A model generated the notes under the pieces. That model ran no database searches, was not told where the DNA came from, and worked only from the letters and a program-made list of their open reading frames with translations. A program made the position numbers and the translations under genes. From positions 1,472,001-1,536,000 of the forward strand of contig CATQHZ020000001.1 of NCBI GenBank assembly GCA_958296135.2: a stretch of DNA of 64,000 nucleotides, given 5' to 3'. Source of the DNA: an uncultured Poribacteria bacterium (GTDB lineage Bacteria > Poribacteria > WGA-4E > WGA-3G). The first letter of the stretch is position 1, and each line of letters begins with the position of its first letter. Positions 27,010-49,916 of this stretch are shown here, in pieces.

Positions 27010-27015
27010 GTAGTT

Positions 27016-27097
27016 ACCGTTGGGGGCGAGACTGCTAGGCGCGGCTGCCCGCCGTGTCTCTCGCCCCACCTATCTAGCAGAAGGTGACACCCAACGG
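27016..27097 (+). ncRNA. Candidate structured 5' leader RNA of tnpB (three stems plus pseudoknot)
   Basis: P1 CCGTTGG/CCAACGG, P2 GGCGAGA/TCTCGCC, P3 CACCT/AGGTG, pseudoknot CTGCTAGG/TCTAGCAG; same fold at 49838. Confidence 0.6.
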
Positions 27098-27110
27098 GAA
27101 CGGTGATTCT

Positions 27111-28337
27111 ATGGCACTACGAGCCCAGAAGATAGCACTCAAACCTAGCGAGAAACAAGTTGCGATGTTCTGTCGTCACGTGGATTTCGCCCGTGTCGCC
27201 TATAATGCGGCGCACTCGGAATCCCGTGACGCCGCGCGTTGGATGTCTGTCTACGACATTAAGAAGGCATTCAACTCTCGCAAACGTGACGTGTTCCCCG
27301 AATTCGCGGACTGCTCGCAGAACGCTGGTAAGAATGCTATCCACGCCTTTGAGGATGCTCGCCAACGTTGGAAGTCCGGACAGAACAATCGTCCCAAGCG
27401 GAAGACGCATAAATCAAAGCCATCGTTCCAAATTGACAACGGCGTTGGCACTGTCCGTATCACGGCGGATGGTAACGCTGCTGTCCTCCCGAAAATAGGT
27501 CATGTGAGGTTGCGAGAGAAACCACGCTATGTCGGCGAGATTCGCCGCGCCTTCATATCCCGAAAGGCAAGCACCTGGTTTATCAGCATCCTCGTCGAAG
27601 TTGATGTCCCGGAACCGCCCGACACGTCAGCACTGCCCCCTGCAGGTTGTGATGTCGGCATCTCTGCCCTCGCCACAATGGACGATGGCACTGTCTATGA
27701 AAATCCGCGTGCCTTGCGCGTCAATGAACGCAAACTACGCCGTGCAAATAAGGCACTCTCCCGCAAGACGTTCCTGAGCCGCAACTGGTGGAAGGCGAAG
27801 GAACGCCTCGCTCGCCTGCATGCCCGTATCGCAAATATCCGGAGCGATGCCCATCATCAGGCGACACATCGCATCCTGCAAGGCATCTCGGCACTTGGCA
27901 TCGAGAGCCTCACCGTGAAAGGTTTGATGAAAAATCGCAAGCTTAGCAAGGCACTCGCTGACGCAAGCCTCGGTGGTTTTCTCGTCAAACTTAAATACAA
28001 AGCGGTGCGCCGTGGTATCCGCATTGTGTCGGCAGATCAGTTCTGGCCGTCAACACAGCGATGCAGTTCCTGTGGCTACGTCAAACGTGGCGAATTCAAA
28101 CTGACGCTCAAGGACAGAGAATACCACTGCGGTGTTTGTGGATTCGTTGAAGATCGGGATGTCAACGCCGCTATAAACCTTCGACAACTCGCGTCTAGCA
28201 CGGACGAGAGTCTAAACGCCTGTGGAGATGCTGTCACACCTACTTTGGTAGGCTGGCATCAGAACCCGCGTGTGCGCGGAAGAAGCAGGAAACCGCTGAC
28301 CGAACAGAGACTCGTAGACTTTGCACATGGCAGATAA
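27111..28337 (+). CDS. tnpB: RNA-guided endonuclease TnpB
   Basis: RuvC D (GCDVG), E (GIESL) and D (DRDVNAA) intact; CSSCG...CGVCG zinc finger. Confidence 0.93.
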   Translation: MALRAQKIALKPSEKQVAMFCRHVDFARVAYNAAHSESRDAARWMSVYDIKKAFNSRKRDVFPEFADCSQNAGKNAIHAFEDARQRWKSGQNNRPKRKTHKSKPSFQIDNGVGTVRITADGNAAVLPKIGHVRLREKPRYVGEIRRAFISRKASTWFISILVEVDVPEPPDTSALPPAGCDVGISALATMDDGTVYENPRALRVNERKLRRANKALSRKTFLSRNWWKAKERLARLHARIANIRSDAHHQATHRILQGISALGIESLTVKGLMKNRKLSKALADASLGGFLVKLKYKAVRRGIRIVSADQFWPSTQRCSSCGYVKRGEFKLTLKDREYHCGVCGFVEDRDVNAAINLRQLASSTDESLNACGDAVTPTLVGWHQNPRVRGRSRKPLTEQRLVDFAHGR

Positions 28338-28397
28338 GTCTACATTTGACGAGATTCTCATAGGTTATGTAGTGCGGCTTAAACGGACTTTGCATGG
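28188..28397 (+). ncRNA. Predicted omegaRNA (reRNA) scaffold plus guide of tnpB-1
   Basis: Shares GAGAG, TAAACGCYTGTGGAG, TGTCA and GAAGCAGGAA with the second element; subterminal hairpin; guide would be the right flank. Confidence 0.6.
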
Positions 28398-28441
28398 CGA
28401 GGGCCTATAGGGACTGTAGCGCGGGGGCCTGTCCCCCGCGG
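28392..28441. repeat. REP family A-like hairpin
   Basis: GTAGCGCGGGGGCCTGTCCCCCGCGG. Confidence 0.7.
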
Positions 28442-28564
28442 TCGTTCAACGATGATGAATTTCATGATGCTTTCTCTTTTTTGCCATCGCTAGGAAGAAA
28501 AACGTCTTGCAACGGTGTGGCGATGTCCGGTTCCAATTATTTTAACCGATTTGCCTTGGTTTTG

Positions 28565-29038
28565 TCAAGTGCCCAGTTGCGCCAATTTTTCGGCGCGATA
28601 TGCGAAAATCTTTTCGATATCCCGTCTCACGAACAACGCATTTACGATTGAATTTCCCCACACGGCGTATGCCACCTCATCCCCAACGACGGTGCCGCCC
28701 GGTGTCTCAGCGAACGTATGCGTATGCCGCCAGCGACGATAGGGGCCTCGGCGTTGCTCATCAACGAAGTAGGCGTGCCCTCCCGGTTTTGATACGTTAG
28801 CGCGCGGGGGCTCCCATGCGGTTATCTCACTCTGCCAACGGAGGGGGATGCCGCGGAGTTTCAACTGATAGTCAATCAACGTGCCGACTTGCATCGTAAT
28901 CGGTGCTGGTGTCAGCACTTCAAACCGAAGCCATGGCGGTGTAATCGCCGCGAGGTTGTGCGCATCCGAAAAGAACGCGAAGACTTCGGCGATAGGCTTC
29001 TCAATCGTCTGCTGCGTTGTGAAACGGAAGGTTTTCAT
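28565..29038 (-). CDS. SRPBCC family protein
   Basis: VFAFFSDAHNLAAITPPWL, WQSEITAWEPP, FVDEQRRGPYRRWRHTH, IFAYR. Confidence 0.88.
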   Translation of the reverse strand: MKTFRFTTQQTIEKPIAEVFAFFSDAHNLAAITPPWLRFEVLTPAPITMQVGTLIDYQLKLRGIPLRWQSEITAWEPPRANVSKPGGHAYFVDEQRRGPYRRWRHTHTFAETPGGTVVGDEVAYAVWGNSIVNALFVRRDIEKIFAYRAEKLAQLGT

Positions 29039-29070
29039 GGTTTGCACAGGGCGAAGAGAGACATCCACCT

Positions 29071-29400
29071 TTACGATTCTTCTGTCTCCAATTGTGAGAG
29101 CCGTTTGTCCAACGCTTTCTGCTGCTGCTCTACCCGCAGCACGTAAAGCATGAATACCAACCAGATAACGAAGTATGCACCGGCGAGGTATTTGAGACGG
29201 TTCCGTTGCGCCGTTTCTAATTTCGCGACAGCGAGTTGGGTGGCGGCGGTGACTTCCTCTTCATCAACGTTAATTTGTGCTTCGGCGATTGCATCCGACA
29301 CCGCGGTGGATACCTCGTCCGCTGTTAAGGTTACGGGAATCTGGGTTGTTAAAAAGAGCGCGAGAGGAATTAAAAAAGTGGCTAAGATGAGTATTCTCAT
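29071..29400 (-). CDS. CcmD family protein with N-terminal extension
   Basis: C-terminal YLAGAYFVIWLVFMLYV...QQKAL; downstream of ccmC. Confidence 0.68.
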   Translation of the reverse strand: MRILILATFLIPLALFLTTQIPVTLTADEVSTAVSDAIAEAQINVDEEEVTAATQLAVAKLETAQRNRLKYLAGAYFVIWLVFMLYVLRVEQQQKALDKRLSQLETEES

Positions 29401-29425
29401 AAAGGTTTCTCCTAGTGCGATGGCT

Positions 29426-29675
29426 CGCGAGGGACAGGCCCTCGCGCTACGGTTGAGTGGCTATTCTTTCCCGTAGGGCGAGGGCCTGTCCCTCGCCATG
29501 TCTCGGTTCTGGGGAGTTTGCGAGGGCCTGTCCCTCGTGCTCCGGTTGCCGAAAGGCCCTGCAATCGGGACAAGGATGTTCCTCTGCAATCTGTCCCTCA
29601 CAAGCATCGAGACCGGGAGGGCTCTCCTACAAGGGAGGATGTCCCTCCTACTGCAATCTGTCCCTCTTGCTACGG
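29426..29675. repeat. Mosaic cluster of REP families A and D (BIME-like)
   Basis: Several GCGAGGG..CCCTCG hairpins, GAGACCGGGAGGGCTCTCCTAC and repeated CTGCAATCTGTCCCTC. Confidence 0.8.
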
Positions 29676-30332
29676 GCCTGGGACGTTGTGAATCATTTCA
29701 TAGCGGGCCTCTGTCTTCTTCAACTGATACCGCAGCCCTGTGAGGAGGACAAAAAGCAGAATGAACGCGACAAGCGATACCATCCATGTCCACTGCATGG
29801 GCGGTGCGAGGTTCCACTTCGTGCCCCGGTCGGGATGTAATCCGCCTTGCCAGATATCCACGGCGTAGTAGACAATCGGCACGTCGAGGTAGGCGATGAT
29901 GCCGAGTACGGCTGAATAGATTCTGCGTTTGTCCTCTGCGAACGCCGAACGCAAGATAAAGTAGCCGACATACATCAACCACAAGATCAGCGTGCTAGTG
30001 AGTCTCGGTTCCCAATTCCACCACGTATTCCATGCGTACCGTGCCCAAATCGGTCCGGAGAGGAGTGCTATGGTGCAGAAGACGAGGCCGAGTTCAGCGG
30101 CGGCGGCGGCGAGCAAATCGTCTGTCGGTTTGCGTTTGATGAGGTATTTGATGCTCATTACAAAGTTCACGCCGAATGCAACGAAGACGGTGAGTGCGGC
30201 GGAGACGTGGAAGTAGAAAATCTTCTGGACTTCCAGCATGGTGCTTTCAATCGGTGCGTACCCGAAGACGAGATAAAGTGAGATGAAAAGTAGGGTTGCG
30301 GTAAAAATCGTGATAATTTTCATGATATCCAA
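29670..30332 (-). CDS. ccmC: Heme exporter / cytochrome c biogenesis protein CcmC
   Basis: IFYFHV, GPIWARYAWNTWWNWEPRLTS tryptophan-rich motif, LHP. Confidence 0.9.
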   Translation of the reverse strand: MDIMKIITIFTATLLFISLYLVFGYAPIESTMLEVQKIFYFHVSAALTVFVAFGVNFVMSIKYLIKRKPTDDLLAAAAAELGLVFCTIALLSGPIWARYAWNTWWNWEPRLTSTLILWLMYVGYFILRSAFAEDKRRIYSAVLGIIAYLDVPIVYYAVDIWQGGLHPDRGTKWNLAPPMQWTWMVSLVAFILLFVLLTGLRYQLKKTEARYEMIHNVPGP

Positions 30333-31105
30333 ATGGGGCTCTCCGTGAGAATTTCTGGGCCGTCCGACAGCACCGCTACAGTATGTTCAAAGAAAGCGGA
30401 GAGACTGCTGTCTGTTGTTGCGATAGTCCATCCGTCTTCTAGGCATTCCACTTCTGCTCCGCCTGCATTCACCATGGCTTCGATGGCGAGCACCATCCCG
30501 GTTCTCAGCCGTGTGCCTCTCTCTGGGGTGCCGAAACAGGGGAGTTCTGGTTTCTCATGGAGGTGGCGTCCGATGCCGTGTCCTGCGTAATTCTGAATGA
30601 CAGAGAACCCGGCGGATTCTGCGACGGTTTGCAATTGCGATGCGATGTCGCCGACGCGGTTGCCCGGCTTCGCCTGTGCAATGGCGGCGTATAGCGATGC
30701 TTTTGTGATATCAAGGAGCCGTTGCGCTTGGGGTGAGACATCGCCGACGGGGAAAGTGAAGGCGTTATCGCCGTGATACCCGCCGAGTTTGACTGCCGTG
30801 TCGACTCCGATGATGTCCCCGGTGTGCAATTTCTCATGCTTGTTTGGGATGCCGTGTATGACGACATCGTTGCGTGAGACGCAGATGCGTGCGGGATAGG
30901 GTGGATGTTCGGGGATTCGATAGTTCAGAAACGAGGGGATAGCGTTAACAGCGGCTGTCGCCTCCTTTGCCACCTGTTCCAGTTCTGCGGTAGAGATGCC
31001 GGGCTGAATTGCTTCTGCGATTCGGTGTAGCACGTGTGCGGCGGCTTTTCCGCTTTGGCGCATCCGTTCAATTTCGCGTTGGTTTTTAATCGTAAGTTTG
31101 TGCAT
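30320..31105 (-). CDS. map: Methionine aminopeptidase type I
   Basis: VVIHGIP, YHGD, GHGIGRHLHE, AIE, FEHTV. Confidence 0.93.
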   Translation of the reverse strand: MHKLTIKNQREIERMRQSGKAAAHVLHRIAEAIQPGISTAELEQVAKEATAAVNAIPSFLNYRIPEHPPYPARICVSRNDVVIHGIPNKHEKLHTGDIIGVDTAVKLGGYHGDNAFTFPVGDVSPQAQRLLDITKASLYAAIAQAKPGNRVGDIASQLQTVAESAGFSVIQNYAGHGIGRHLHEKPELPCFGTPERGTRLRTGMVLAIEAMVNAGGAEVECLEDGWTIATTDSSLSAFFEHTVAVLSDGPEILTESPIWIS

Positions 31106-31276
31106 GGTATTCTGTGGATGAGGGCAACGAGGTGTAATACCAAATTAAGTTGATTTGTCGCGCGCCTCTAGATGAAGTTCGCCGGATTTGGACCCGCATG
31201 TCATACAGGGCATGGCTCGGATTCTCTTCCCAGCTCAGTGCCGGGCTCAGGCTGCTTCGCAGGAAACCCGAACGAC

Positions 31277-32518
31277 TCAGGTTAATTTGGTATAAGCCCG
31301 CGTCAGTTCTACTTCAGTATCTGCGATGTTGCATAAACCGGCGTATTCTTGCTGAATTTTTTCATGCGCAACCTTGCCGCCGATCTGGTAGAGACAAATT
31401 TTCTCTGCCACTTTTCGGTTGGGCTGCGCGGTAATCATGCGTTGCCGCGTTTCGTCCCAGAGGAGGCCTGCCCACGGGGTATTAGCGAGTTCCATTGGGA
31501 TTTCCGAGATGCGTCTAGTGGTTTCTTTTTCGCACCCCCCTGAATCCTTCGCGTGTCTGACGACGTGCGCTATCATCAGAAGTCCCAGGGGCCGGAAAAG
31601 GAGGTGTCCGCCGTTGCTGTGGCGATAGCGTTTTGTAATATGCGCGTCCGGCTGGTTTGCGAGTACCTCATTGATAGGTGGAAATGCCGCTGCCAGCGTG
31701 TTCCAGAAGCGTTCACTTTTGGCGTAAAATTCGGCGAGGGTGCTATCCGCCGGCCGATGCCGCTTGAATTCATCCCATCCCTTTTCCGTTCTAAACAAGA
31801 TGTCCAAAACATCGTAAAGCGTCGTAATTGTCGTCCAGTTCCTATTATCTTCTGCGAGGGTTTTCGTTGTCGCGAGCGAAATTTTCTCTTGAAAGAGCGG
31901 GTGGTTTTCAACGAGTTGCCGCGTTGTGATTGCGATGATGTCGTCCTCATCCTGCGCGACAATCTCGCTTTTACTGCTAGGTTTCGCGGCGCGGTTCAGC
32001 GTTGCGAAAAGCCTGCGCGTCCGCGCTATTCCCACCGCATCTTTCCGATGCGAGACGAAGATGACGCTTACTTCTTCGCGGTTGAGTTCTTCGCTTTCTG
32101 CAAGTGCCTTTTTAATGCCTTCAACGCGGTGCTGTCCATCAATCGCGAACAGCGTCTCCGCGCCATCAAGCCGGAGGATGCCGAGGGCTCCCTCCAAATA
32201 GAGTGGGAGTGCCTCTGCGTCAAAGTGGCGGTTCGTGCCAATTGCCAATTCATACCAATCCGGCGAGCCTCCGTAAACGCCAACGATGAGGGCATTAAAG
32301 AACCGCTGCGGTTGATTTAGCAGGTAGTCCGAGATTTCACCGGCGCGCTTGGCAATCTGCTGTTGCACCATCGCCTTGAGTGTTGGGCTTGAGTGGATTT
32401 CCTCGGCGATGTGGACGCGCTTGGCAATCTCTTCCATTTGAAGAAAGGTGACATAGTAAACCCAATCGCCCATGTGGGCTCTCAGCGCAGGGAGAAGAAG
32501 TTCGTTGGTTTTTGTCAT
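31277..32518 (-). CDS. DGQHR-domain (DndB/ParB-superfamily) protein
   Basis: MGDWVYY, RFFNALIV, FAIDGQHR, TRRLFATLN. Confidence 0.88.
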   Translation of the reverse strand: MTKTNELLLPALRAHMGDWVYYVTFLQMEEIAKRVHIAEEIHSSPTLKAMVQQQIAKRAGEISDYLLNQPQRFFNALIVGVYGGSPDWYELAIGTNRHFDAEALPLYLEGALGILRLDGAETLFAIDGQHRVEGIKKALAESEELNREEVSVIFVSHRKDAVGIARTRRLFATLNRAAKPSSKSEIVAQDEDDIIAITTRQLVENHPLFQEKISLATTKTLAEDNRNWTTITTLYDVLDILFRTEKGWDEFKRHRPADSTLAEFYAKSERFWNTLAAAFPPINEVLANQPDAHITKRYRHSNGGHLLFRPLGLLMIAHVVRHAKDSGGCEKETTRRISEIPMELANTPWAGLLWDETRQRMITAQPNRKVAEKICLYQIGGKVAHEKIQQEYAGLCNIADTEVELTRAYTKLT

Positions 32519-32748
32519 TAGAAAACACCTCTGACGCGACGAACCCCTGAAGGGAGCTGCTCATTACAAGGCGGCACGAACGAAGTGCTGAGTGCATCTT
32601 CTATTTCGTGAATCCGTTCAACTTGCGGAATTACCGCATAACAGAAATGGAGATAGCCTTGATACTTGTTCAACAACCGCAAGATGTTTGAGCGTCCTGC
32701 TGGATTGTTCTGCTCACGAAGATACTCGTTGATCGGGAGCCCAAACAA
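32518..32748 (-). pseudogene. 5'-truncated partner gene, possibly the C-terminal half of a GIY-YIG-like nuclease
   Basis: EYLREQ...RSNILRLL...EIEDAL...PPCN; TAATG stop/start coupling to the DGQHR gene; no good start or RBS, abuts the miaB stop. Confidence 0.5.
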
Positions 32749-32770
32749 GTCAAGATCCGACGAGTTTTAC

Positions 32771-34207
32771 CTATAGAACAATCTGCCCTATCAACGTATG
32801 CGCCGTGGTGCTCTCAATGCAAACATCAACCATGTCCCCTACCGCGCTGTTCGCCATCGGAAACACCGTCGTTTTGAAGCCGTCTGTTTTTCCGTAATAC
32901 CGGTTTGCGTCGCGGCGGGATTCGCCTTCTACCAGCACAGTAAACGTCTCGCCGATAGCGGCATCGTTAATCTCTGCAGAGATTTTCTCTTGGAGCGCGA
33001 TAATTTCCCTGAGTCGTCTCCCCTTCTCCGTTTCCTGCACATCGTCTGGGAACGCCTTATGCGCGAGGGTGCCCTCCCGGTCGGAATACTTGAACATGAA
33101 CGCCGAATCGTAACGGATGTCTGCCATCATCTCATACGTCTGCATGAATTCCGCTTCGGTTTCACCACAGAACCCGACGATGATATCTGTGGTGAGGACG
33201 ATGTTGGGGATGCGTTCGCGGAGTTTCGCGACTAAGTCGCGGTATTCCTCCGCCGTATAGGTGCGGCGCATCCGCTCCAACACCGATGTAGAACCGGATT
33301 GCAGCGGCAGGTGCAGGTGGTTACAGACGTTTGGCGAGTTCGCCATTGCGTCTATCATGCTGTCGGTGGCATCTGCTGGGTGCGGAGACGTAAAGCGCAC
33401 GCGTTCTAGTCCGTTCACGTTGCTAACGGCATGGAGCAATTCGCCGAAGTCAGAACCACTTGTTCCGGTGGGCGTGTTCTCCCTATTTTGACTTTCATAG
33501 CGATAGGAGTTGACAGTCTGGCCGAGGAGGACTACCTCCTTGAACCCCTGTTCTACTAGTTTTTCGACATCTTCGACGAGCAGTTTGAGCGGCAGGCTTC
33601 GTTCTCTGCCTCGCACGAACGGGACGATACAGAAGGTGCACATCTTATCGCATCCCCGCTGGATTGTGAGCCAGGCGCGAATTCCCTCCTTTCGGATAGG
33701 GGCGATATCGGCGTAATCCTCGCTTTTGTCCAACCGCACGCCTAAAAACGGGTCGCGATTTGTCACAGCATTCAGTGCCATCGGCAGGTTCCGATAGGCA
33801 TCGGGGCCCATCACCAGATCGACGTACGGTGCGGCCTCCACCAGCCGGTCGCGGAGGTGCTGCGCCATGCAGCCACACACGCCGATGATGAGCTCCGGGT
33901 CGCGGCGTTTACGGTGGTTCAACTGCTTTAACCGATTGAGCACCTTCGTCTCGGCATTCTCCCGAATGGCGCAGGTGTTGAGTAGCACGACATCTGCATC
34001 GTCCAAGTGTGACACCGTCCGATGTCCACTTTGAGTGAGAATGCCGGCCATCAGTTCGCTGTCGCTGACGTTCATCTGACAGCCGTAAGTCTCGATGTAT
34101 ATCTTACGCGCTTGCGAGAGGGCCGCGGTGTGTTGTAACCCTGCTTTCTGATAGATGGGTAAACGAGTGATTGTGCTTTTTTCCACGTTTTGTGCCTCTA
34201 TAGCCAT
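32771..34207 (-). CDS. miaB: tRNA-2-methylthio-N6-dimethylallyladenosine synthase
   Basis: TYGCQMN, NTCAIRE, GCDKMCTFC radical SAM motif, RFTSPHP, TRAM domain. Confidence 0.95.
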   Translation of the reverse strand: MAIEAQNVEKSTITRLPIYQKAGLQHTAALSQARKIYIETYGCQMNVSDSELMAGILTQSGHRTVSHLDDADVVLLNTCAIRENAETKVLNRLKQLNHRKRRDPELIIGVCGCMAQHLRDRLVEAAPYVDLVMGPDAYRNLPMALNAVTNRDPFLGVRLDKSEDYADIAPIRKEGIRAWLTIQRGCDKMCTFCIVPFVRGRERSLPLKLLVEDVEKLVEQGFKEVVLLGQTVNSYRYESQNRENTPTGTSGSDFGELLHAVSNVNGLERVRFTSPHPADATDSMIDAMANSPNVCNHLHLPLQSGSTSVLERMRRTYTAEEYRDLVAKLRERIPNIVLTTDIIVGFCGETEAEFMQTYEMMADIRYDSAFMFKYSDREGTLAHKAFPDDVQETEKGRRLREIIALQEKISAEINDAAIGETFTVLVEGESRRDANRYYGKTDGFKTTVFPMANSAVGDMVDVCIESTTAHTLIGQIVL

Positions 34208-34430
34208 TAAGCTCTTAAGGGTTTTTTATTCGGAATGGGGCTTTTTTGTGATTGCCTCATCGGTTCTGCTTTTGCGAGAACTGCGTTCATCTGAATGCTA
34301 TGCGTTAATTATACCATAATATCTGTGTTAATGCAAATTGATTTGCATTTTGCCGAGGGAATAGGTTACACTATATTGAGATAAGTCGCGACCTTGCGAA
34401 AAAATAAGACATTTGAAAGGAGGGCGCATC

Positions 34431-35141
34431 ATGCCCGTCATCGGAATCACGTCCAAAGATAGGACAGGGATGACTAATTATATCAATGCAATTCAGGAAT
34501 TCGGTGGAGAACCGCTTGTCTTTGCTTCACTAGACAGATCTGTTCGCGCGCACCACGCGGCTATTCCCGAATACCTCGATCAAATTGATGGACTGCTGCT
34601 GCCGGGCGGCGGCGACATCAATCCATGCCTTTATTTTCAGGAACGGCACCGTAACGTTAGAGGTGTTAGTAGATCGCGCGATGCACTAGAGATATGGCTG
34701 TTCCAAAATGCTTTGGAAGCCAACCTTCCGGTCCTCGGCATCTGCCGCGGCATCCAGATTATGAGTGTTGCGATGCGAGGAAGTCTGTATCAGGATATTG
34801 CGGATACGGTGCCGCGGGATACCTTATGTCATACACGAGTGGATGGCACCGATTCTCGGCATGACATTGAGATAGATGATGGCAGTTTACTGCGTCACAT
34901 CGTGGGTAGTCGCGGTGCTGAGGTGAATTCGGCGCATCATCAGGCAGTGGACGCAGGTGGTGAAGGGCTCGTCGTCACAGCGCGTAGCACCGAGGATGGC
35001 ATCATTGAGGCTATTGAGCGTCCCGACAAGCGGTTTATGCTCGGCGTGCAATATCACCCGGAACGGATGCTCAAGGCGCGCGAGTTGCGCGAACACGGTG
35101 CGAAACTCTTTACGGCGTTCATTGAAGCGGCGGCTTCCTAA
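34431..35141 (+). CDS. Peptidase C26 / gamma-glutamyl-GABA hydrolase (PuuD-like)
   Basis: LLLPGGGD, GICRGIQ, VNSAHHQ, GVQYHPE. Confidence 0.9.
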   Translation: MPVIGITSKDRTGMTNYINAIQEFGGEPLVFASLDRSVRAHHAAIPEYLDQIDGLLLPGGGDINPCLYFQERHRNVRGVSRSRDALEIWLFQNALEANLPVLGICRGIQIMSVAMRGSLYQDIADTVPRDTLCHTRVDGTDSRHDIEIDDGSLLRHIVGSRGAEVNSAHHQAVDAGGEGLVVTARSTEDGIIEAIERPDKRFMLGVQYHPERMLKARELREHGAKLFTAFIEAAAS

Positions 35142-35147
35142 TTATTA

Positions 35148-35293
35148 CCGTAGGGCGAGGGTCTGTCCCTCGCCGTGCGCCGATAGCTACGGCTTGTTTC
35201 CGTAGGGCGAGGGTCTGTCCCTCGCTGTGCGCCGATAGCTACGGCTTGTTTCCGTAGGGCGAGGGCCTGTCCCTCGCCGTGCGCCGATAGCTA
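35148..35293. repeat. 52-bp tandem repeat (about 2.8 copies) of a REP family A unit
   Basis: CCGTAGGGCGAGGGTCTGTCCCTCGCCGTGCGCCGATAGCTACGGCTTGTTT starting at 35148, 35200 and 35252. Confidence 0.9.
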
Positions 35294-35315
35294 GATAAAA
35301 AAAGGAGCACACAAC

Positions 35316-36005: not shown

Positions 36006-36016
36006 GAATTGGCGGC

Positions 36017-36042
36017 GGGCGGATAGAGACATCCGCCCATAC
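36017..36042. repeat. REP family C
   Basis: GGGCGGATAGAGACATCCGCCCATAC. Confidence 0.8.
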
Positions 36043-36125
36043 AATCCGAGGCAGAGGCATTTCAGCAGACATGAAGGAATGTCCTAACGGCACTAAAGAA
36101 ACGTGTGGCGGTGTGACATCCTGCG

Positions 36126-37049: not shown

Positions 37050-37062
37050 GCAGTGTCTCCGG

Positions 37063-42314: not shown

Positions 42315-42401
42315 GTTTCTGCGCCAAATTTGATTAAGATTTACGGAAATTTTAAACGAATTCCATTTTTTTTGTCAAGCGAAACCGTGGGTAGCTCTGT
42401 G

Positions 42402-42454
42402 CATGGCGAGGGGAGCCCTCGGCGATTCGCGTTCGCCGGGCCCTCGCCCTACGG
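42402..42454. repeat. REP family A long hairpin
   Basis: Homologous to copies at 2626 and 13559. Confidence 0.8.
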
Positions 42455-42488
42455 AGATTCGGCGGGAGATTGGAAGACGGCTCGCATC

Positions 42489-45400
42489 TCATTCCACTTC
42501 AAGGATGCCATACGCCACGGCTTCTGTCGTAATCTCGGCTGTCCTTATTGCTTCATCCAGTTCCTGAATGCGGCGGTTGTAGTCTGCTTGCGCGTTGGCG
42601 ATTTCGCTTTCGCGCATCCGGCGGATGTTCGCCTCCTGCACCCGGTCGCGTTGGCTTTCAAGGAGTGCGATGCGTTTCTGATGACTCGTTGACAAATTCT
42701 TTTTGCGGTGATTTGCCAAGTCTCGCGTGCGCCGCTGGTGTTCTTCACGTGCCTCAGCCCACAGCTGCTGATGCGCCGTTTCTAACGCCTCACGTTCCGG
42801 CGGTGAATCACTCTCTCGGATGTGACTATCCGCCGCTTTCTCCAGAAGCTTGTTCAGATGCGGCGTTAATGCCGCCGAGGAAGAGACCGGTTTCAGCACC
42901 AGATTCCCCTTAATGCCGTGAAACTGCCATTGGTAAATGGCGAAATCATAACGGCCGGCGGGGACATCGCGCGTGCGCGTCTTCAATTTGGCGAAGACGT
43001 TGGGTTCAATTTTTAACCGCGCCGCCGCCTGTTTCACCAACGGGTGCGTCGGCACGATGAAGGTAGCCTCCGGATGCTGTCGTTTGCACTCCGAATCAAA
43101 GGTGATGGACAAATGCGGGACTGCACTCTTCAACCAGTCTTCCCACTCACGATAGACGGGGCTTCTTTCTCTGGAGAGTTCCCGGAAATCTTGCAGCAGT
43201 GTGTTACGCGCCTCTTCGGAAAGCCGAAGCGTTTTCAGCGTTCTTTCGCCGAGGATGAATTCCCTGTCCTGCCCGAAGTGCTGCTGCAGATAGTGCGTGA
43301 CGAGCCGCTGGATGGAGTACGCGGATAACCAGAAATTGGTGGCGTTTTCGACATCTTTCTCCATCTGTTTATCCGGGAGATGAATGCTGAAGAGCTCTAA
43401 CTGCTGCGCTTCGAGGCTTTCATGTTCCTGCATCAGCCGGATTTGGTTATCCGCCAATTGTTGGAGTTTCTCCTTCCGTTCTTCTCTGCTGAGTGCATGG
43501 TTTTCGGCGATATTCTGGATTTCGGTGGTGATTTCGCCGAGGATTTCTTCGGTGCCGCCGAGGGCACTCTCGAACACACCGATGCGGAGGAAGCACCGTT
43601 CGTAGATGTCGGCATCGACAGTGCCGGGGGTAATTAGGTTGATGATGGTAACCCGTTCGCTTGTTTGCCCCTTCCTGTCGATGCGGCCGATGCGTTGTTC
43701 AATTTTCATCGGATTCCACGGCAAATCATAGTTGACGATGCAGTCGCAGAACTGATAATCCAACCCTTCGCATCCGACTTCGGAAAACAGCATGACATCA
43801 ATGCAGTCGTCCGCGGTTTTTGGTTTCTCAAACCGATTTCGCAGCGCGAGGCGTTCTTCGTCCGGCACACCGCCGTGAATCATCCCGACGCGCACGCCGT
43901 CCGATTTGAGGTACTTGTAAAGGTAGGCGAGCGTGTGCCGGAAGCTGCTGAACAGCATGATTTTGTTGTTGCGCAACCGTTGCCGCTCTCGGACAATTTT
44001 GCGGAGAGATGCCAGTTTCAAATCGTCGGAATCGACAGATTGCGCTTGGTTCAGAACCTCTTCGACTTGAGCGCGAATCCGAGGGATGGCTTCCTCATTC
44101 GGCATCGCGTCGACAGCATCAGCTTCCGCCCAGGCGAATTCGTCAAGGTGGCGATGCAAGATATCCTCAAGGAGCGGTTCAAGTCCGTAGAGGCAGCTTG
44201 CAAGTTGGCGGCGCAGCGTCGTCATCATGAAATTGACGTTCCTGTCTCCGTGAAGCGTGCGGAATATCTCCTCTTGCATTTCCAAGAGTGCGTTGTGAAG
44301 TTCCTCCTGGTCTGCCGATAATTCAACCTCTACGGTTCGTGGCTGTCGCAGGGTAAACTCGCCGATGTCGCGCCGACGCGTGCGGTTGATTATCCCTGAG
44401 AAGGTGTGCTGCGCTTCCATCTCTGTGATGAGTTGCACCCGTTCTTCCGGCGTAACGCGCCCGGAGGCAATGTGCCGTTGGATGCGCTGGAATTCCGGGT
44501 TGTCCTTGAGGAACGATTGTCCCCAGGCGGTGGCTACTGCCTTGTCCAATTCTCTAGCGGCTTGCTGCGTCCATCCCCGTGTTTGCGCCCGTGCCACGTC
44601 AACAGCGCGGTTAATAAACGGGTTCGGTTCCGCCATGTCATTGAAACTCTCCTCGTCTAAAACCAGGTCTGGACGTAGCACGTTGAGCAGCACGAACAAA
44701 TCATGGCTGCCGAGTTGGATAGGGGTGGCGGTGAGGAAGACTGCTGCCTCCGCATGCACGCAGAAGAAGCGAACTGCCTCGTGATTCGCAGTGTTCTGGT
44801 TTCGGATGTGATGTGCCTCATCGACAATAACCAAGTCAAAGCGTGGCGGCGGATCCAGATCCAACAGTCCCTTGCGGCTTTTTTGCCTGCGCCTTCCCTC
44901 GGGTCCAAAAAGGAGCGTCTTATCTAACAGCGAATAGGGAATAATTACCTTCTGATGCTGCACGGGCCACTCGCCATCAAGATGTGTCTCGCTGATGCAG
45001 TATCGCAACGTTTTTCCATCTAGCGGCGTGAAACTTTCGTCAAACCGCTTCATCTCCTGCTCCCATTTTTTCTCAGCGACGAGGGGCCGCGGGCAGATAA
45101 TAAGCGCGGATTTAATTTCGCGGCGTGCTTGGAGTTCCCGCAAAATCAGGCCTGCCTCGATGGTTTTGCCCACACCGACACTATCGGCGATGAGTATCCT
45201 CGGCAGTTCTGCCTTGATGAATTTCATCACTGGCCGATACTGATAGGGGATGAAGTCAATGCTTGCCGTGTTAAGCGAATAGAGCGAGGATAACACCGGG
45301 TAGCGGATATGAAGAGCGGTGAGATAGGCGTGAAACGCGTCGCCAGATAACCCTTGAAAGGCTTCAACAGGACGTGTTTCAACCTGTAACTGCGAAGCGT

Positions 45401-45563
45401 AAAAGGTTTGAACGTTTCCGTTCAGGAAGACGTTGAATCGGTTTTCAGGTGTGCCCGGTAACACGGCGACTACCGCGCCGCGGATAGACGGGTTTGATTG
45501 CAGGCACACAATTTGGCCTGGAGAGAACTCCAAAGCCGGAGGCGTGTTTGCATCCATGTTCAT
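42489..45563 (-). CDS. SNF2/RapA-like helicase (DrmD-like architecture)
   Basis: ILIADSVGVGKT, VDEAHH, LTATP, SEVGCEGLD, YDLPWNP, EQRIGRIDR; C-terminal coiled coil. Confidence 0.88.
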   Translation of the reverse strand: MNMDANTPPALEFSPGQIVCLQSNPSIRGAVVAVLPGTPENRFNVFLNGNVQTFYASQLQVETRPVEAFQGLSGDAFHAYLTALHIRYPVLSSLYSLNTASIDFIPYQYRPVMKFIKAELPRILIADSVGVGKTIEAGLILRELQARREIKSALIICPRPLVAEKKWEQEMKRFDESFTPLDGKTLRYCISETHLDGEWPVQHQKVIIPYSLLDKTLLFGPEGRRRQKSRKGLLDLDPPPRFDLVIVDEAHHIRNQNTANHEAVRFFCVHAEAAVFLTATPIQLGSHDLFVLLNVLRPDLVLDEESFNDMAEPNPFINRAVDVARAQTRGWTQQAARELDKAVATAWGQSFLKDNPEFQRIQRHIASGRVTPEERVQLITEMEAQHTFSGIINRTRRRDIGEFTLRQPRTVEVELSADQEELHNALLEMQEEIFRTLHGDRNVNFMMTTLRRQLASCLYGLEPLLEDILHRHLDEFAWAEADAVDAMPNEEAIPRIRAQVEEVLNQAQSVDSDDLKLASLRKIVRERQRLRNNKIMLFSSFRHTLAYLYKYLKSDGVRVGMIHGGVPDEERLALRNRFEKPKTADDCIDVMLFSEVGCEGLDYQFCDCIVNYDLPWNPMKIEQRIGRIDRKGQTSERVTIINLITPGTVDADIYERCFLRIGVFESALGGTEEILGEITTEIQNIAENHALSREERKEKLQQLADNQIRLMQEHESLEAQQLELFSIHLPDKQMEKDVENATNFWLSAYSIQRLVTHYLQQHFGQDREFILGERTLKTLRLSEEARNTLLQDFRELSRERSPVYREWEDWLKSAVPHLSITFDSECKRQHPEATFIVPTHPLVKQAAARLKIEPNVFAKLKTRTRDVPAGRYDFAIYQWQFHGIKGNLVLKPVSSSAALTPHLNKLLEKAADSHIRESDSPPEREALETAHQQLWAEAREEHQRRTRDLANHRKKNLSTSHQKRIALLESQRDRVQEANIRRMRESEIANAQADYNRRIQELDEAIRTAEITTEAVAYGILEVE

Positions 45564-45577
45564 ATTTTCTTCCTTGA

Positions 45578-46735
45578 TTAGCGCATTAGCGTAACAATCA
45601 GCGTTGTGATGGCAGAGGCAGTGGAGACGATGGTGCTTACCAAACCCCAATTCCATTGAAACCGCTTATCTACCTCCAAAATGTCGCCCGGGTAGAGTAA
45701 AATCGCGTCCGTGCCTATGTTGAATGTAAACGGATGCTCAAGACTGGTGCCATCGCGACGATGAATCGTGACATTTTTCCGGTCTGCCGCTTCTTCAAAC
45801 CCACCCGTTAAGGCAATAGCCTGTGCAATCGTCAGTGGGCCGCGGATGCGCTGCGCGCCGGGAATGCGCACGTAGCCGATGACGTAAATCGGCTCTACCT
45901 TGAACGCATTCGGCACGAACAGCACATCCCCATCGGACAGTAGGATAGCCCTTCCTGTCTCGGCATTTGCCGCTCGGTTCGGCGTGGATTTCCAAAACTG
46001 CTCTGTCACGCTGAATTCGGAGAGGGCTCCGTCGCGGCTCACCTTGACGAGTGCCCCGAGGTCTGCCTCTTCCGTAGAGCCGCCGGCCCTTGCCAACGCT
46101 TCGGCGATGCCGATTGTGCCGCGGATAAAAAGTTTGCCCGGCACCTGTACCTGTCCCTGAACCTCCACCACGCTGAGCGGCATGACGAACACTAAATCGC
46201 TGACATTCACTTGGACATCGCGGTAAGGTTGATTTATGGAGATATCATAGGTTTCAACCTTTCCCGCGGTAGGCACGGTTTTCAAGCGCGCCCGCTCACG
46301 AATGAGTTGCACCTGTTGGACATCAGCATTCTCTGCCATTCCGCCTGCAAGGGTTATCGCGCGGTATAGCCCGATGTCTGTTTTTGGTGAGATAACGTAA
46401 CGCCCCGGGGTTTTCACTGCGCCGCCGACGAAAATGCCGTTCTCTTGCGGCACAGGGGATACCATGATGACGGGATTGCTGACGAGGTTCTCCGAGACGA
46501 GAAAGTCACGAATGCGTTGGCTCACCGCGTCCGCTGTCTTGCCGGCGACGTGAAGATCGCCGATGAAGTAGCTCATCATGCCGTCTTCTCGGACTTGCAC
46601 GGTTTGCGTATATTCGGGTTGCCCGATGATGGCAATGAGGAGCGTATCGCCTTCGCGGATGCGATACACATCGCCGAGAACCGAATTGTTCGCTGTCCAA
46701 ATAAGGAAAATTAGGGTGAAGAGAATTTTTTGCAT
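45578..46735 (-). CDS. Polysaccharide export protein with SLBB domains (Wza-like)
   Basis: YRIREGD, VREDG, GAVKTPGRY, repeated AxxxAGG SLBB motifs. Confidence 0.85.
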   Translation of the reverse strand: MQKILFTLIFLIWTANNSVLGDVYRIREGDTLLIAIIGQPEYTQTVQVREDGMMSYFIGDLHVAGKTADAVSQRIRDFLVSENLVSNPVIMVSPVPQENGIFVGGAVKTPGRYVISPKTDIGLYRAITLAGGMAENADVQQVQLIRERARLKTVPTAGKVETYDISINQPYRDVQVNVSDLVFVMPLSVVEVQGQVQVPGKLFIRGTIGIAEALARAGGSTEEADLGALVKVSRDGALSEFSVTEQFWKSTPNRAANAETGRAILLSDGDVLFVPNAFKVEPIYVIGYVRIPGAQRIRGPLTIAQAIALTGGFEEAADRKNVTIHRRDGTSLEHPFTFNIGTDAILLYPGDILEVDKRFQWNWGLVSTIVSTASAITTLIVTLMR

Positions 46736-46829
46736 GCGCGCTTCCCTTGTTACAAAAATCCCAATGCGGATGTCTCTATCCGCCCGTGTCCATCGGAGAA
46801 AGATGCCCTGTTTATTTCCTTAATCTTCA

Positions 46830-47102
46830 TTAGGGCTGCCACGTCTCTAGGGAATCAAAATAGGTTTTGAGGCATTCCCGTGCTTGCGGGAGAGAATCTG
46901 CTGGCACGAGGACATCGCCCCATTCGGATTTTCCTGCGTTACCCTTAAGGGCACCGCCATAGGCAGGTGTGTCGTGTGGCCGTAGGTAGACAGCGATACC
47001 TGCCTCTTCCAAAACGCTTTTAATGATATTTCCCGCGACTTCATTCGGCACGGATTCGATGGCATGCCAGTTATCAGACTCTGGTTTCGCAAAAAAAGAC
47101 AT
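46830..47102 (-). CDS. DUF2007 family small protein
   Basis: IIKSVLEEAGI...VLVP..A...L pattern. Confidence 0.7.
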   Translation of the reverse strand: MSFFAKPESDNWHAIESVPNEVAGNIIKSVLEEAGIAVYLRPHDTPAYGGALKGNAGKSEWGDVLVPADSLPQARECLKTYFDSLETWQP

Positions 47103-47237
47103 GGGTTTTTCCTCTGTGTCTAGCGTCGTGTTTCTATGATAGCATACACGCGGGAATTTGTCAAATTCTGATGCGTCTGATGAAATGTAAAAAATGTGAC
47201 ATTCCGAGACATTTTGTGGTATACTTAAAAATCACTC

Positions 47238-47318
47238 GCGAGCGAAGAGGAGATTCTTGATGCCTATTCCCATTTAACCAAAGCGGACATTCAGGCGTGC
47301 CTGAGTTATGCCGCGCGT
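47238..47318 (+). pseudogene. DUF433 antitoxin C-terminal remnant
   Basis: Translates ASEEEILDAYSHLTKADIQACLSYAAR (DUF433 consensus); no start codon, followed by a REP. Confidence 0.7.
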
Positions 47319-47340
47319 TGCCACCCGACTGCATGTCGCG

Positions 47341-47369
47341 GTAGGGCGGGTAGAGACATCCGCCCTTAC
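47341..47369. repeat. REP family C
   Basis: GTAGGGCGGGTAGAGACATCCGCCCTTAC. Confidence 0.8.
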
Positions 47370-47436
47370 CCTCCCGGCACGTGCACGCTTTCCGAAGAGA
47401 CCGGACGACTGAATGCTTCTGGCTTCTTTAGGGAAA

Positions 47437-48258
47437 CTATTTGTTGAATTCCCAGAGCCGCAACGCTGTTTTCCCCAAAACCCATTCCCTATCTTCAGGC
47501 GTGAAGAAGTCCATTTCGTCGCGCACAACCGCCAGCGTTTGCGCATAACTTGCACGCTTCAAGCAGACGGGCCAATCCGTGCCCCACATTATCCGATTGC
47601 CGCCGAAGGCGTGATATACCCGCTTCACCTGGGCGAACGTATCTGTCCACGGATACCCTGTGTTGGAGAGGGACCAGGTATGGCTAATCTTGACATAGAC
47701 GCGCGGGAATCGCGCGAGGTTCAGGAGCCATTCAAGTTTTTCGGGTGCCGCAGGCGAACAATCCGCCATGTGGTCTACCACGACATCCAGGGCCTCATGC
47801 TGTTCCAAGAGTGGCACCAGGTCAGCGAGTCGTTCGGGCCCCGTCAAGATAAGCATGGGCACGCGGAGTGTTTCGGCGCGTTTGAAGATGGGTGGCATTA
47901 AGGGCCCGGTGAACCAATCGCCGGCGGGGCCGACAGCAGGACTCAGTCGAACGCCATGGAAACCGTGTTCCTCTGTCCAGCGGCTGAGGTGCTCTGGTGC
48001 GCCCGGGTCTTCCGGGTTAATTCGGCATACGCCCATGAGTTTATCGGGATACCTCTTCATCGCGTCTGCGGCGTAACTGTTGTCCCACCGATAGTGGATG
48101 ACTTGGACGAGTACAGTCTTTTCAACGCCGTTGGCTGCCATCAATTCCAGCAACATCTCCGCTGTGGCATCTTCGGTAGGTGGGTTCGTTGTCTCTGGTG
48201 CCCACGGGAACCTCGGGTCATTTTTCCATACGTGAACGTGCGGGTCGATAATTCTCAT
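47437..48258 (-). CDS. Amidohydrolase family protein (lactonase-like)
   Basis: IIDPHVHVW, VVDHM, MWGTDWP. Confidence 0.88.
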   Translation of the reverse strand: MRIIDPHVHVWKNDPRFPWAPETTNPPTEDATAEMLLELMAANGVEKTVLVQVIHYRWDNSYAADAMKRYPDKLMGVCRINPEDPGAPEHLSRWTEEHGFHGVRLSPAVGPAGDWFTGPLMPPIFKRAETLRVPMLILTGPERLADLVPLLEQHEALDVVVDHMADCSPAAPEKLEWLLNLARFPRVYVKISHTWSLSNTGYPWTDTFAQVKRVYHAFGGNRIMWGTDWPVCLKRASYAQTLAVVRDEMDFFTPEDREWVLGKTALRLWEFNK

Positions 48259-48259
48259 G

Positions 48260-49297
48260 CTATTTCTCCTTTACAGGTTCGTGCTGCGTCTGTCCGAATA
48301 AGAATCCGAACGCGCCTAAAGGCAGGCAATACAACAAAATCATCAGGTGGAGGCTAAACCCGACGACGGTGCCAGTCTCTTTTGAGGTGCCGAAGAGGTG
48401 GAGCAGCCATACAAACGGAAACTCGGTTGTTCCGAAGTTGCCGACGGTTTGGATAGGTAGCAGGTTAAATCCATTTGTAAAGACGAGCGCGAACAGCACC
48501 TCAATCAACGGAATCTCAACGCCCATTTCGGCGACGAGGTAGCACTGAAACCCAAAACGAATTGCGAGGCAGAGGCATGAATATGCCCAAACCTTCAGAA
48601 ACGGATGGATGTGGCTTTTCATGGCCGTGGCCATCCGGACAATCTGCGTTACTTCGCGAATGACAGCCATTCCCTTGTTGACTATCCATGTGAGCGGCGT
48701 TTTATTAAGCCGCAGCAGCGGCATTGCGCATCTCTCGGCGAGAGCCGTGCAAGAATTGGGTGCAGCGCAAGCGAAAACCAGCACTGTCAGCAGCCCGCCT
48801 CCGATAAGCAGCGGCATCAGATAGAGCAATGTCCAACTGATGCTTTGCAAGCGCGCTTGCAGGAGTGAGGCTGTGCCTACCATCAAACCGATTAACAGGA
48901 GTAGATCGATGAGACTTGCGACGAGAAGCGATGCGATGCCTTGCGTTGCATTGACTTTCTGCCGCCGTTGCATCAGATAGACATAGGAGACATCCCCGGT
49001 CCGCATCGGCAGGAAATTCCCCCAGAAGGTGTGCAAGGCGAGAATGGGGAAGAGTTGATGCACCGGGCGGCTCTCCAATCCCAGTAATTCGCGGAAGCGG
49101 AGCGTTTTGCACCACACCAGCAGGCAGTAACAGCCGAATCCGATGAGCAGTGCCTTGATGGACAGTCGGCTCAGCGTTTTCGGTATCTCTCGGATGTCGA
49201 TTTCCTTTAATAGAAAGGAGGTGATGATTATCGCCAGTGCCGTGGGTAAGACGATTTTGGCAATTTGCCGGCATCGCGTTGTGTTTAAAAGCAGCAT
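48260..49297 (-). CDS. Lysylphosphatidylglycerol synthase TM (flippase-like) protein
   Basis: Multi-TM; NFLPMRTGD, LPIQTVGNFGTTE. Confidence 0.8.
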   Translation of the reverse strand: MLLLNTTRCRQIAKIVLPTALAIIITSFLLKEIDIREIPKTLSRLSIKALLIGFGCYCLLVWCKTLRFRELLGLESRPVHQLFPILALHTFWGNFLPMRTGDVSYVYLMQRRQKVNATQGIASLLVASLIDLLLLIGLMVGTASLLQARLQSISWTLLYLMPLLIGGGLLTVLVFACAAPNSCTALAERCAMPLLRLNKTPLTWIVNKGMAVIREVTQIVRMATAMKSHIHPFLKVWAYSCLCLAIRFGFQCYLVAEMGVEIPLIEVLFALVFTNGFNLLPIQTVGNFGTTEFPFVWLLHLFGTSKETGTVVGFSLHLMILLYCLPLGAFGFLFGQTQHEPVKEK

Positions 49298-49303
49298 TAT
49301 GTG

Positions 49304-49594
49304 CTATTTGCGTTTAAGTGCTTCCTGCGCGCGCCGCAGCGCGAAACGGGCATCAACATCATTTGGGTTTTGTTGAATCGCCGCCTTGAAGTCCTCAATA
49401 GCGGTATCAAGTTGCCCCAACCGATCCTTCGCCATTCCACGATTGTAGTAGGCATCAACGCGAGGGTTGAGTTGGATTGCCTTGTTATAGTTGACAATAG
49501 CGGCATGATATTGCCCAAGCATGTTCTTTGGCTCTCCCTGATTACGGAATGCTTCGGCACCCGCCTGTTTGGTTTGCATAATAGTATCCTCCAC
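49304..49594 (-). CDS. Small TPR protein
   Basis: YNKAIQLNP..AYYNRG..AIEDFKAAIQQNP. Confidence 0.75.
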   Translation of the reverse strand: MEDTIMQTKQAGAEAFRNQGEPKNMLGQYHAAIVNYNKAIQLNPRVDAYYNRGMAKDRLGQLDTAIEDFKAAIQQNPNDVDARFALRRAQEALKRK

Positions 49595-49670
49595 ATTTCT
49601 AAATCTTATTGAAGTTTACCTGATAAAGTATACCACGAAAATTTGTTTTTGTCAATTTTTACGAAAAAGT

Positions 49671-49700
49671 TTGACATAAGAATGCGAACTATGGTATGCT
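49671..49700 (+). promoter_or_regulatory. Probable native mutS promoter (now upstream of the tnpB element)
   Basis: TTGACA-N18-TATGCT with extended TG; divergent TTGACA-N17-TATACT promoter at 49627..49655. Confidence 0.6.
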
Positions 49701-49837
49701 ATATTAGGAAGATTTTTATGTCGCTTGCGAAGTTTGGGTTAAATAAATCACTGAAAGGAGGACGTTCCTAGCCCCCGAAAATCGAGCCACATCGTGGTAA
49801 AAGCGGATTTATCGTGATAAACGCCAACATAAGTGTT

Positions 49838-49900
49838 ACCGTGTTGGGCAATGATATCACCGCCAGCGCATTGCCCACCTTGTGATAAAGGCAAACACGG
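49838..49900 (+). ncRNA. Candidate structured 5' leader RNA of tnpB-2
   Basis: P1 CCGTGTT/AACACGG, P2 GGGCAATG/CATTGCCC, P3 CCTT/AAGG, pseudoknot TATCAC/GTGATA. Confidence 0.6.
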
Positions 49901-49916
49901 CATACGGGAACACCTC

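Follow-up and report, generated by a model that had tools for sequence, protein, structure and literature searches.

The 64,000-nucleotide (nt) stretch analysed here, referred to as the window, belongs to an uncultured Poribacteria bacterium (GenBank assembly GCA_958296135.2, contig CATQHZ020000001.1, positions 1,472,001 to 1,536,000 of the forward strand) and carries two solo tnpB units of IS607 type, both on the + strand. Element 1 spans positions 26910-28377 of the window, with a tnpB of 408 amino acids at 27111-28337 that matched Pfam OrfB_IS605 (3.1e-24) and Cas12f1-like_TNB (2.2e-18). Element 2 spans 49761-51152, and its tnpB of 359 amino acids at 49917-50996 matched OrfB_IS605 (3.1e-25), Cas12f1-like_TNB (2.7e-19) and HTH_OrfB_IS605 (2.5e-08). 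Immediately 5′ of each tnpB lies a leader RNA on the + strand, at 27013-27101 in element 1 and at 49835-49911 in element 2. The folded leader is real and is strongly supported by compensating mutations across its relatives, in addition to which the strand that closes the fold is present twice, the second copy lying close to the start codon.

Fold and covariation of the two tnpB leaders

The leader of element 1 lies 10-98 nt 5′ of the tnpB start. Its closing helix P1 pairs 27017-27024 with 27090-27097, the latter being the first copy (copy 1) of the P1 3′ strand. Within P1 are the helix P2a (27025-27031 with 27059-27065), a bulge in P2 that holds the pseudoknot strand PK1 (CTGCTAG, 27032-27038), the mini-hairpin P2b (27038-27045 with 27051-27058) and the helix P3 (27067-27071 with 27082-27086), whose loop contains PK2 (CTAGCAG, 27074-27080), the partner of PK1. 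A second copy of the P1 3′ strand (copy 2, AACGGTGA, 27099-27106) ends 4 nt short of the ATG; it holds the Shine-Dalgarno-like stretch GGTGA and is able to pair with TTACCGTT (27014-27021). In element 2, P1 pairs 49839-49845 with 49894-49900 (copy 1), P2 pairs 49846-49853 with 49869-49876 and carries PK1 in its terminal loop, and P3 pairs 49878-49881 with 49888-49891 and has PK2 as its loop. The pseudoknot is formed by TATCAC (49855-49860) and GTGATA (49882-49887), and copy 2 (ATACGG/ACGGGAAC) occupies 49902-49911. Both leaders begin with GTTACCGT, and the loop-loop complementarity is visible directly in the sequence.

When we folded the leader of element 1 with RNAfold, exactly the nested helices were returned at -48.4 kcal/mol (z = -3.44), and none of 200 shuffled sequences folded as well. 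The minimum free energy structure of element 2 contained the same three helices at -26.3 kcal/mol (z = -1.71), a result that is weak alone, with 8 of 200 shuffles as good. An earlier sequence-only reading of the window had proposed P1, P2, P3 and the loop-loop pseudoknot at both tnpB genes, and the sequences and nested helices were confirmed at their coordinates.

To follow the fold through its relatives, two models were used. Model R1 was made from nine ungapped rows of the element 1 type and nested helices only, a MAFFT alignment of all variants in the window's own genome having been misaligned in its 3′ half. Model R2 was made from 17 diverse matches, with the pseudoknot left out. With default filters, R1 overlooked element 2 and several divergent leaders, which were recovered with the filters off; the leader of element 2 was then found at exactly 1419-1495 of locus L024 with 19.3 bits (E 0.016 in 86 kb). 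Since a model built from rows of the element 1 type alone finds the element 2 leader at the predicted coordinates, the two leaders of the window are homologous.

R2 was used to align 83 matches from 85 loci, of which 79 were distinct (alignment A6; four loci gave no match at E ≤ 0.001 and two gave a second match). All 34 tested pairs changed on both sides among the 79 distinct rows. Paired cells amounted to 91.0%, versus 62.2% after shuffling and 36.6-42.2% when the partners were slid by 1-3 columns, and the covariation score was 0.708 versus 0.200 and 0.055-0.076, respectively, although for the nested helices these values lean towards structure because A6 was fitted to those helices. The pseudoknot is the cleaner test, as it was absent from the model behind the alignment. 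It was paired in 85.1% of cells, versus 69.1% in shuffles and 22-48% with slid partners, and showed 70 double-change cells against 19.6 ± 3.5 in shuffles. Its covariation score was 0.399 against 0.144, a value reached by none of 500 shuffles, and like the other covariation figures it is not a probability, because the sequences are related. At least 15 different complementary pseudoknot sequence pairs could be read. The covariation among homologous leaders that the sequence-only reading had named as a check was therefore found, pseudoknot included, and the second conserved structured RNA which it had placed at the 5′ end of solo tnpB units, distinct from the omegaRNA at the 3′ end, exists.

A G-U pair between columns 34 and 84 is retained in 58 of the 79 rows, P2b is capped by a GCAA or GCGA loop in 29 of them, and locus L001 scored 116.9 bits on the forward strand versus 16.2 bits on the reverse strand. 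These features suggest an RNA read from the + strand. About 12 positions are conserved at ≥ 90%, with few invariant nucleotides outside the helices. The junction strands measure 0-1, 0-3 and 3-6 nt, and the consensus of J3/1 is A-rich.

The genome that contains the window gave 36 tnpB matches, 30 of which were taken as loci for comparison. The leader was directly 5′ of tnpB in 21 of these loci and not in the other nine. Its pseudoknot reads CTGCTAG/CTAGCAG, ATCCAAG/CTTGGAT or CCTACTAAG/CTTAGTAGG, and P2 reads GGCGAGA/TCTCGCC or GGTGAGA/TCTCACC; a pair is broken in some copies (L003, L008, L012, L018 and L020). The CCTACTAAG variant precedes two tnpB families, one in L009 and L011 and the other in L015 and L018-L022. 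Because these families are only 47% identical, the leader moves independently of the protein, and recombination that swaps the 5′ module between elements is implied. In four siblings of element 2 (L026, L027, L028 and L030), the P2 5′ strand is interrupted after TTGGGC by an insertion of about 230 nt, resembling a miniature inverted-repeat transposable element and lying about 230 nt upstream of tnpB. The insertion begins with TCGGTCGAGCGTGCAGTG, like an IS607-type left end, and the tnpB frames of these copies are intact (359-360 amino acids). In another Poribacteria genome (G005, L141-L158), near-identical tnpB copies differ in the variable 4-5 base pairs (bp) of the pseudoknot (TGTCA/TGACA, TATCA/TGATA, TGTTA/TAACA and TACGA/TCGTA), several with a mismatch, and many of the tnpB frames are truncated.

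Promoter position and the second partner of P1

Inside element 1, a sigma70-like promoter (TTGCAT, 17 nt, TAGAAT, TG-extended; 26981-27009, + strand) is conserved in sibling copies. The promoter scan registered it as TTTGCA-N18-TAGAAT, equal to TTGCAT-N17-TAGAAT, with 9 of 12 matches, and returned this one site against 0.3 expected from shuffles. A start of the leader at the predicted start of this promoter had been proposed from the sequence, and the promoter-like site ending at 27009 agrees with it. For the family, we considered 75 leaders, namely 77 distinct rows minus two without a copy-1 site of at least 6 pairs. In 73 of the 75, the distance from the end of a TANNNT motif to the first paired base of P1 is 1-14 nt (mode 7), with a mean match of 4.9/6 to TATAAT (-10) and of 4.1/6 to TTGACA (-35) at 16-18 nt spacing. 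From this spacing between promoter and P1 we infer that the fold starts at about +1 of its own transcript.

The P1 3′ strand is tandemly repeated, and across subfamilies both copies change along with the 5′ strand. Copies 1 and 2 read CCCAACGG-gAACGGTGA in element 1 and AACACGG-c-ATACGG in element 2, and elsewhere AAACTGG-AACTGG, AAGCTGG-AAGCTGG, ACTGTGA-ACTGTGA or CCTGATA-CCTGATA. At least six contiguous pairs to the 5′ strand were found within 15 nt after copy 1 in 63 of the 75 leaders, compared with 25% when 5′ strands of unrelated leaders were used and 18% with shuffled windows. Copy 1 extends deeper towards P2 in 56 of 68 leaders, and in 23 of these 68 the pairing of copy 2 comes closer to the 5′ end than that of copy 1. 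In 49 of 62 leaders copy 2 ends 3-8 nt 5′ of the ATG, and the median energy difference between the two conformers, when forced, is +1.3 kcal/mol (from -6.3 to +13.0; n = 62 after 6 of the 68 leaders with no ATG in range were dropped). Two mutually exclusive helices, one of them just 5′ of the start codon, as would be expected of a translational switch, are thus predicted computationally.

In this genome, 16S has the 3′ end GGATCACCTCCTTT. Many leaders of the tnpB type have a 5′ strand of (T)ATCAC, which resembles the 16S tail GGATCACC, and a copy 2 of GTGAT or GGTGA, so the arrangement is that of a putative anti-Shine-Dalgarno strand, a decoy and a Shine-Dalgarno sequence. The conserved GGGAAC is explained by the ability of ACGGGAAC to pair with the first bases, GTTACCGT, in both elements of the window.

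Elements, genomes and genes that carry the leader

The left end of element 1 is CTCGGTGCAG, after the flank TAGGGG, and its right end is ...GTAGTGCGG; similarity among 11 sibling copies begins and ends there. Element 2, with boundaries drawn from eight sibling copies, has the left end GACGTTCC after the flank AGGAG and the right end ...CAGGGAACAG, 6 nt 5′ of the mutS ATG. A published account of IS607 elements (PMC13565253) describes G-rich/GG ends without inverted terminal repeats, repeat units within the ends and, in full copies, a serine recombinase as TnpA; it reports AGGAG as a transposon-adjacent motif of IS607 TnpB and links IS607 TnpB with RAGATH-18. Element 1, with its TAGGGG left flank and GCGG terminus, and element 2, with its AGGAG left flank, fit this family. 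In addition, the sibling L004 holds an open reading frame with a Resolvase domain (2.3e-18) directly 5′ of a 93% identical tnpB, and no leader. The label of IS607 type, assigned in the sequence-only reading, is borne out by these G-rich/GG ends and the Resolvase-domain gene. The promoter and leader sit inside the left end, the leader about 100 nt in, where full copies hold tnpA. Part of the 3′ omegaRNA of element 2 may lie at 51048-51101 (+ strand), where RAGATH-18 gave a weak match of 20.0 bits (E 1.2), below the gathering score of 44.9. We rejected GTTAC as the end or insertion site of an IS200/IS605-type element with a DNA hairpin, as similarity between the copies extends about 100 nt beyond it on the upstream side and the ends resemble those of IS607; the genome has just two weak matches to Y1 transposase, both elsewhere.

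The left ends carry two direct repeats each, 20 nt apart, namely ATACTAGGAG and AATCTAGCAG in element 1 (26938-26967, + strand) and ATCGTGGTAAA and ATCGTGATAAA in element 2 (49791-49821, + strand). The 9-mer ATCTAGCAG occurs both in the second repeat of element 1 and in the P3 loop of its leader, and the second repeat of element 2 is identical to the P3 loop region (49880-49896) at 14 of 17 positions. More generally, the stretches before the promoter resemble the P3 loop region of the leader (26950-26967 versus 27064-27080, and 49812-49828 versus 49880-49896), which may reflect a decayed second leader or protein-binding repeats. That the repeats serve as decoy partners of PK1 in read-through transcripts was considered and discarded, since they are unchanged in copies with other pseudoknot sequences. 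In L016, L018 and L020 a different insertion of about 100 nt, with the hairpin GTGTCATTCG...CGAATGACAC, separates the left-end repeats from the promoter. Upstream of element 1, the gene with an SLT domain is followed by a terminator-like hairpin and T-run (26870-26899) ending about 10 nt before the left end. Element 2 sits between a promoter-like TTGACA-N18-TATGCT (49672-49705, + strand), outside the element, and mutS (ATG at 51159), so mutS may now be transcribed through tnpB and the omegaRNA.

R1 found 21 sites in the window's own genome, all before tnpB or tnpB fragments, and matches in 4 of 60 other related genomes. The closest relatives of the tnpB genes are Candidatus Poribacteria sequences. 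Of 151 Poribacteria genomes, 90 contained the motif when searched with R2 (E ≤ 0.01), which gave at least 650 matches and up to 36 copies per genome; by family, the motif occurs in 83 of 99 genomes of f1, in 6 of 26 of f3 and in none of 25 from seven other families. It gave no match in 151 + 151 genomes of two other phyla, nor in five genomes of other phyla that have tnpB relatives. A possible phage link, suggested by two exact core patterns in 69 and 9 stretches of viral contigs, was dismissed as chance matches, R2 having found nothing in those 646 kb, which double as a negative control of the model. At gathering thresholds, a search of the whole window with Rfam 15 yielded three tRNAs and nothing else, and no Rfam 15 family fell on the leader in eight motif instances (both elements and six further loci) at E up to 10 or 1; the comparison with Rfam that the sequence-only reading had called for thus gave no described family. 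In the published literature, supplementary motif lists lying outside our search, neither a 5′ leader of tnpB nor an RNA motif from Poribacteria was found to be described. A 'Poribacteria-1' motif is reportedly included in a 2017 catalogue of candidate RNAs, so an earlier listing is possible; the Rfam 15 comparison covered this motif and the IS605-orfB motif if that release contains them. Cis-regulatory structured leaders are a known kind of RNA, but this family of them, with its duplicated closing strand, seems to be new.

In other genomes, tnpB-like sequence was found within 1.45 kb downstream (tblastn E < 1e-6) in 65 of 107 loci and was missing from 42, fractions that are not phylum-wide estimates because the sample favours high-scoring matches and few genomes. 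Among the fetched loci, those before tnpB were 30 of 30 in G005 (33 matches), 18 of 23 in G098, 6 of 7 in G004, 3 of 7 in G016, 2 of 5 in G077 and 0 of 6 in G110. A Pfam run on 20 representative downstream genes confirmed five of five suspected TnpBs. It assigned orphan DNA methyltransferases to five loci (N6_N4_Mtase in L124, L169, L114 and L184, and D12 methyltransferase in L132), GIY-YIG to L186 and L172, NUMOD3 to L183, where GIY-YIG was just below the cut-off, and RNA_pol_A_CTD to L133; L116, L117, L137, L170 and L131 had no Pfam family. At least 13 loci stand before a family of proteins of 116-132 amino acids without a Pfam family, whose hydrophobic N-terminus reads like a putative signal peptide. 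The small-protein genes (L034, L035 and L116-L138, other Poribacteria) share GGAACACCTCATGAAAAC with element 2 (49908-49926), a stretch that takes in the start codon as well as the first two codons, and exchange of the module may have carried the beginning of the coding region with it.

Function of the leader and its relation to known RNAs

The leader is widespread in Poribacteria and stands before other genes as well, so it is not a private partner of TnpB and is probably a general switch of translation or mRNA stability. We give a probability of roughly one half to the view that it acts in cis, in the 5′ untranslated region, and controls translation or stability by toggling between its P1 partners. 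The RNA would begin at, or within a few bases of, the start from its own sigma70-like promoter and fold into a three-way junction with P1 as the closing helix, P2 as a long hairpin with a 5′ bulge and P3 as a short hairpin, and a pseudoknot of 6-9 bp that joins the P2 bulge to the P3 loop would lock the junction. Pairing of copy 1 would leave the ribosome-binding region free, and pairing of copy 2 to the same 5′-terminal strand would occlude it. As the 5′ end would be base-paired in both states, slower 5′-end-dependent decay would be expected. A role as translational regulator, one of those suggested in the sequence-only reading, fits the second P1 partner adjoining the ATG. We read promoter and leader together as a portable expression module, which in this genome has taken the place of tnpA before IS607-type tnpB.

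Several observations weigh against such a switch. Element 2 gave no consensus promoter in the same kind of scan. A search for RNA runs that cover the locus gave none, so that we infer the transcript along with its 5′ end and the switching. The controls of the copy-2 test are high (18-25%), and pairing with the 5′ strand is separated weakly from mere repetition of copy 1, given that only the 23 of 68 leaders noted above extend further 5′. The near-equal energies of the conformers follow almost automatically, because copy 2 repeats copy 1. In the large CCAGTTT-type subfamily, copy 2 has no Shine-Dalgarno-like sequence. The four siblings of element 2 with an insertion in P2 keep their tnpB frames, so the gene can be kept without an intact leader. 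Finally, no known trigger was seen for such a switch.

An alternative is a pure stabiliser at the mRNA 5′ end, in which the junction guards against 5′-end-dependent nucleases and pyrophosphohydrolase and copy 2 is a spare partner without any switching. 5′-terminal stem-loops stabilise bacterial mRNAs, and the closeness of P1 to the predicted start (a few bases at most in 73 of 75 leaders), the few invariant nucleotides outside the helices, as for a structural element, and downstream genes without a common function are all consistent with this. However, a simple hairpin would suffice for the purpose, and a covarying pseudoknot together with a covarying second partner near the ATG exceeds the need, so we regard stabilisation alone as unlikely. 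A new class of ligand-sensing riboswitch or self-cleaving ribozyme, with the junction as sensing or catalytic core and the tandem P1 partners as expression platform or product hold, seems more doubtful. Purine riboswitches and hammerhead ribozymes have a similar architecture, a three-way junction with a loop contact, the A-rich J3/1 is conserved along with about 12 positions at ≥ 90%, and the motif is present in up to 36 copies per genome and adjoins tnpB, DNA methyltransferases and homing-type nucleases, in whose neighbourhoods RAGATH RNAs and small ribozymes are found. On the other hand, the junction strands are very short and no hammerhead core is readable in them, no Rfam ribozyme or riboswitch model matched the eight instances at E up to 1-10, and the downstream genes lack a shared metabolic theme from which a ligand could be deduced.

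The sequence-only reading had also offered roles specific to TnpB, namely an autoregulatory binding site of TnpB or its omegaRNA, or a transposition cofactor of the IS607-type unit. All 21 model matches in the window's own genome precede tnpB or its fragments, as do 65 of 107 loci elsewhere and all 30 of those fetched from G005. These roles nevertheless fare badly and are very improbable: 42 of the 107 loci stand before other genes, none of the six in G110 precedes tnpB, tnpB families with only 47% identity have one leader variant in common, a leader is lacking in L004, a complete IS607 copy, and the position of the leader, about 100 nt in from the left end, is not that of the recombination site. 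A feature of the DNA alone, with inverted repeats or hairpins recognised by transposase or recombinase and no RNA role, deserves hardly any credit, for although direct repeats in both left ends contain the pseudoknot loop sequence again and PMC13565253 describes repeat units in IS607 ends, the conserved G-U pairs turn into C-A mismatches when read from the opposite strand, GNRA loops are present, the model score is strongly asymmetric between strands, the motif keeps a fixed place with respect to promoter and ATG, it also occurs at non-transposon genes and the left-end repeats do not covary with the pseudoknot.

A bolder form of the switch, which we put forward only tentatively and consider rather unlikely, would make the leader a regulatory RNA of a new class, a 5′ switch with two stable states, locked by the pseudoknot, that may sense a ligand or protein or self-cleave. 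Poribacteria and their mobile elements would employ it as a portable module for gating TnpB, GIY-YIG nucleases, orphan methyltransferases and secreted proteins, with the freely covarying pseudoknot as the identity of each copy. The expression and restraint of solo tnpB genes are poorly understood, and published work has centred on the 3′ guide RNA. A module of promoter and leader common to tnpB, methyltransferase and homing-nuclease genes bears on this question, and hundreds of natural variants amount to a ready-made compensatory-mutation experiment. The family, with at least 650 instances from an uncultured phylum of sponge symbionts, is an apparently uncatalogued family of structured RNAs, and its duplicated closing strand is unusual.

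In IS10, IS200 and hok, transposase or toxin mRNAs are controlled by anti-Shine-Dalgarno pairing or 5′ fold-back. The Poribacteria leader resembles these in having one strand with two possible partners, one of which covers the ribosome-binding region, and in standing before selfish genes that are usually kept low; it differs in that no antisense RNA is seen and in that the partners are tandem copies of the P1 3′ strand of a pseudoknot-locked junction predicted to start at +1. With the omegaRNA, or RAGATH-18, it shares the property of a structured RNA encoded in the same element. The omegaRNA, however, is at the 3′ end, overlapping the end of tnpB and the right end and followed by the guide, whereas the leader is at the 5′ end, has another fold without an Rfam match and occurs without tnpB; the omegaRNA-like region lies at the opposite end of the element, so the leader is not itself an omegaRNA.

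Purine riboswitches and hammerhead ribozymes likewise arrange three helices around a junction and hold two arms side by side via long-range pairing. The hammerhead core consists of CUGANGA between the stems, GAAA and a cleavage triplet. The leader shows neither a readable CUGANGA/GAAA core nor an Rfam hammerhead match and does not qualify as a hammerhead, its junction strands are nearly absent and no conserved purine pocket is readable in it. Its long-range contact, unlike that of either RNA, is a Watson-Crick helix of 6-9 bp that covaries freely. As in the stabilising stem-loops of the ompA type, a helix is predicted within a few nucleotides of the 5′ end, but the leader is more elaborate, at about 85 nt with a pseudoknot and a duplicated closing strand.

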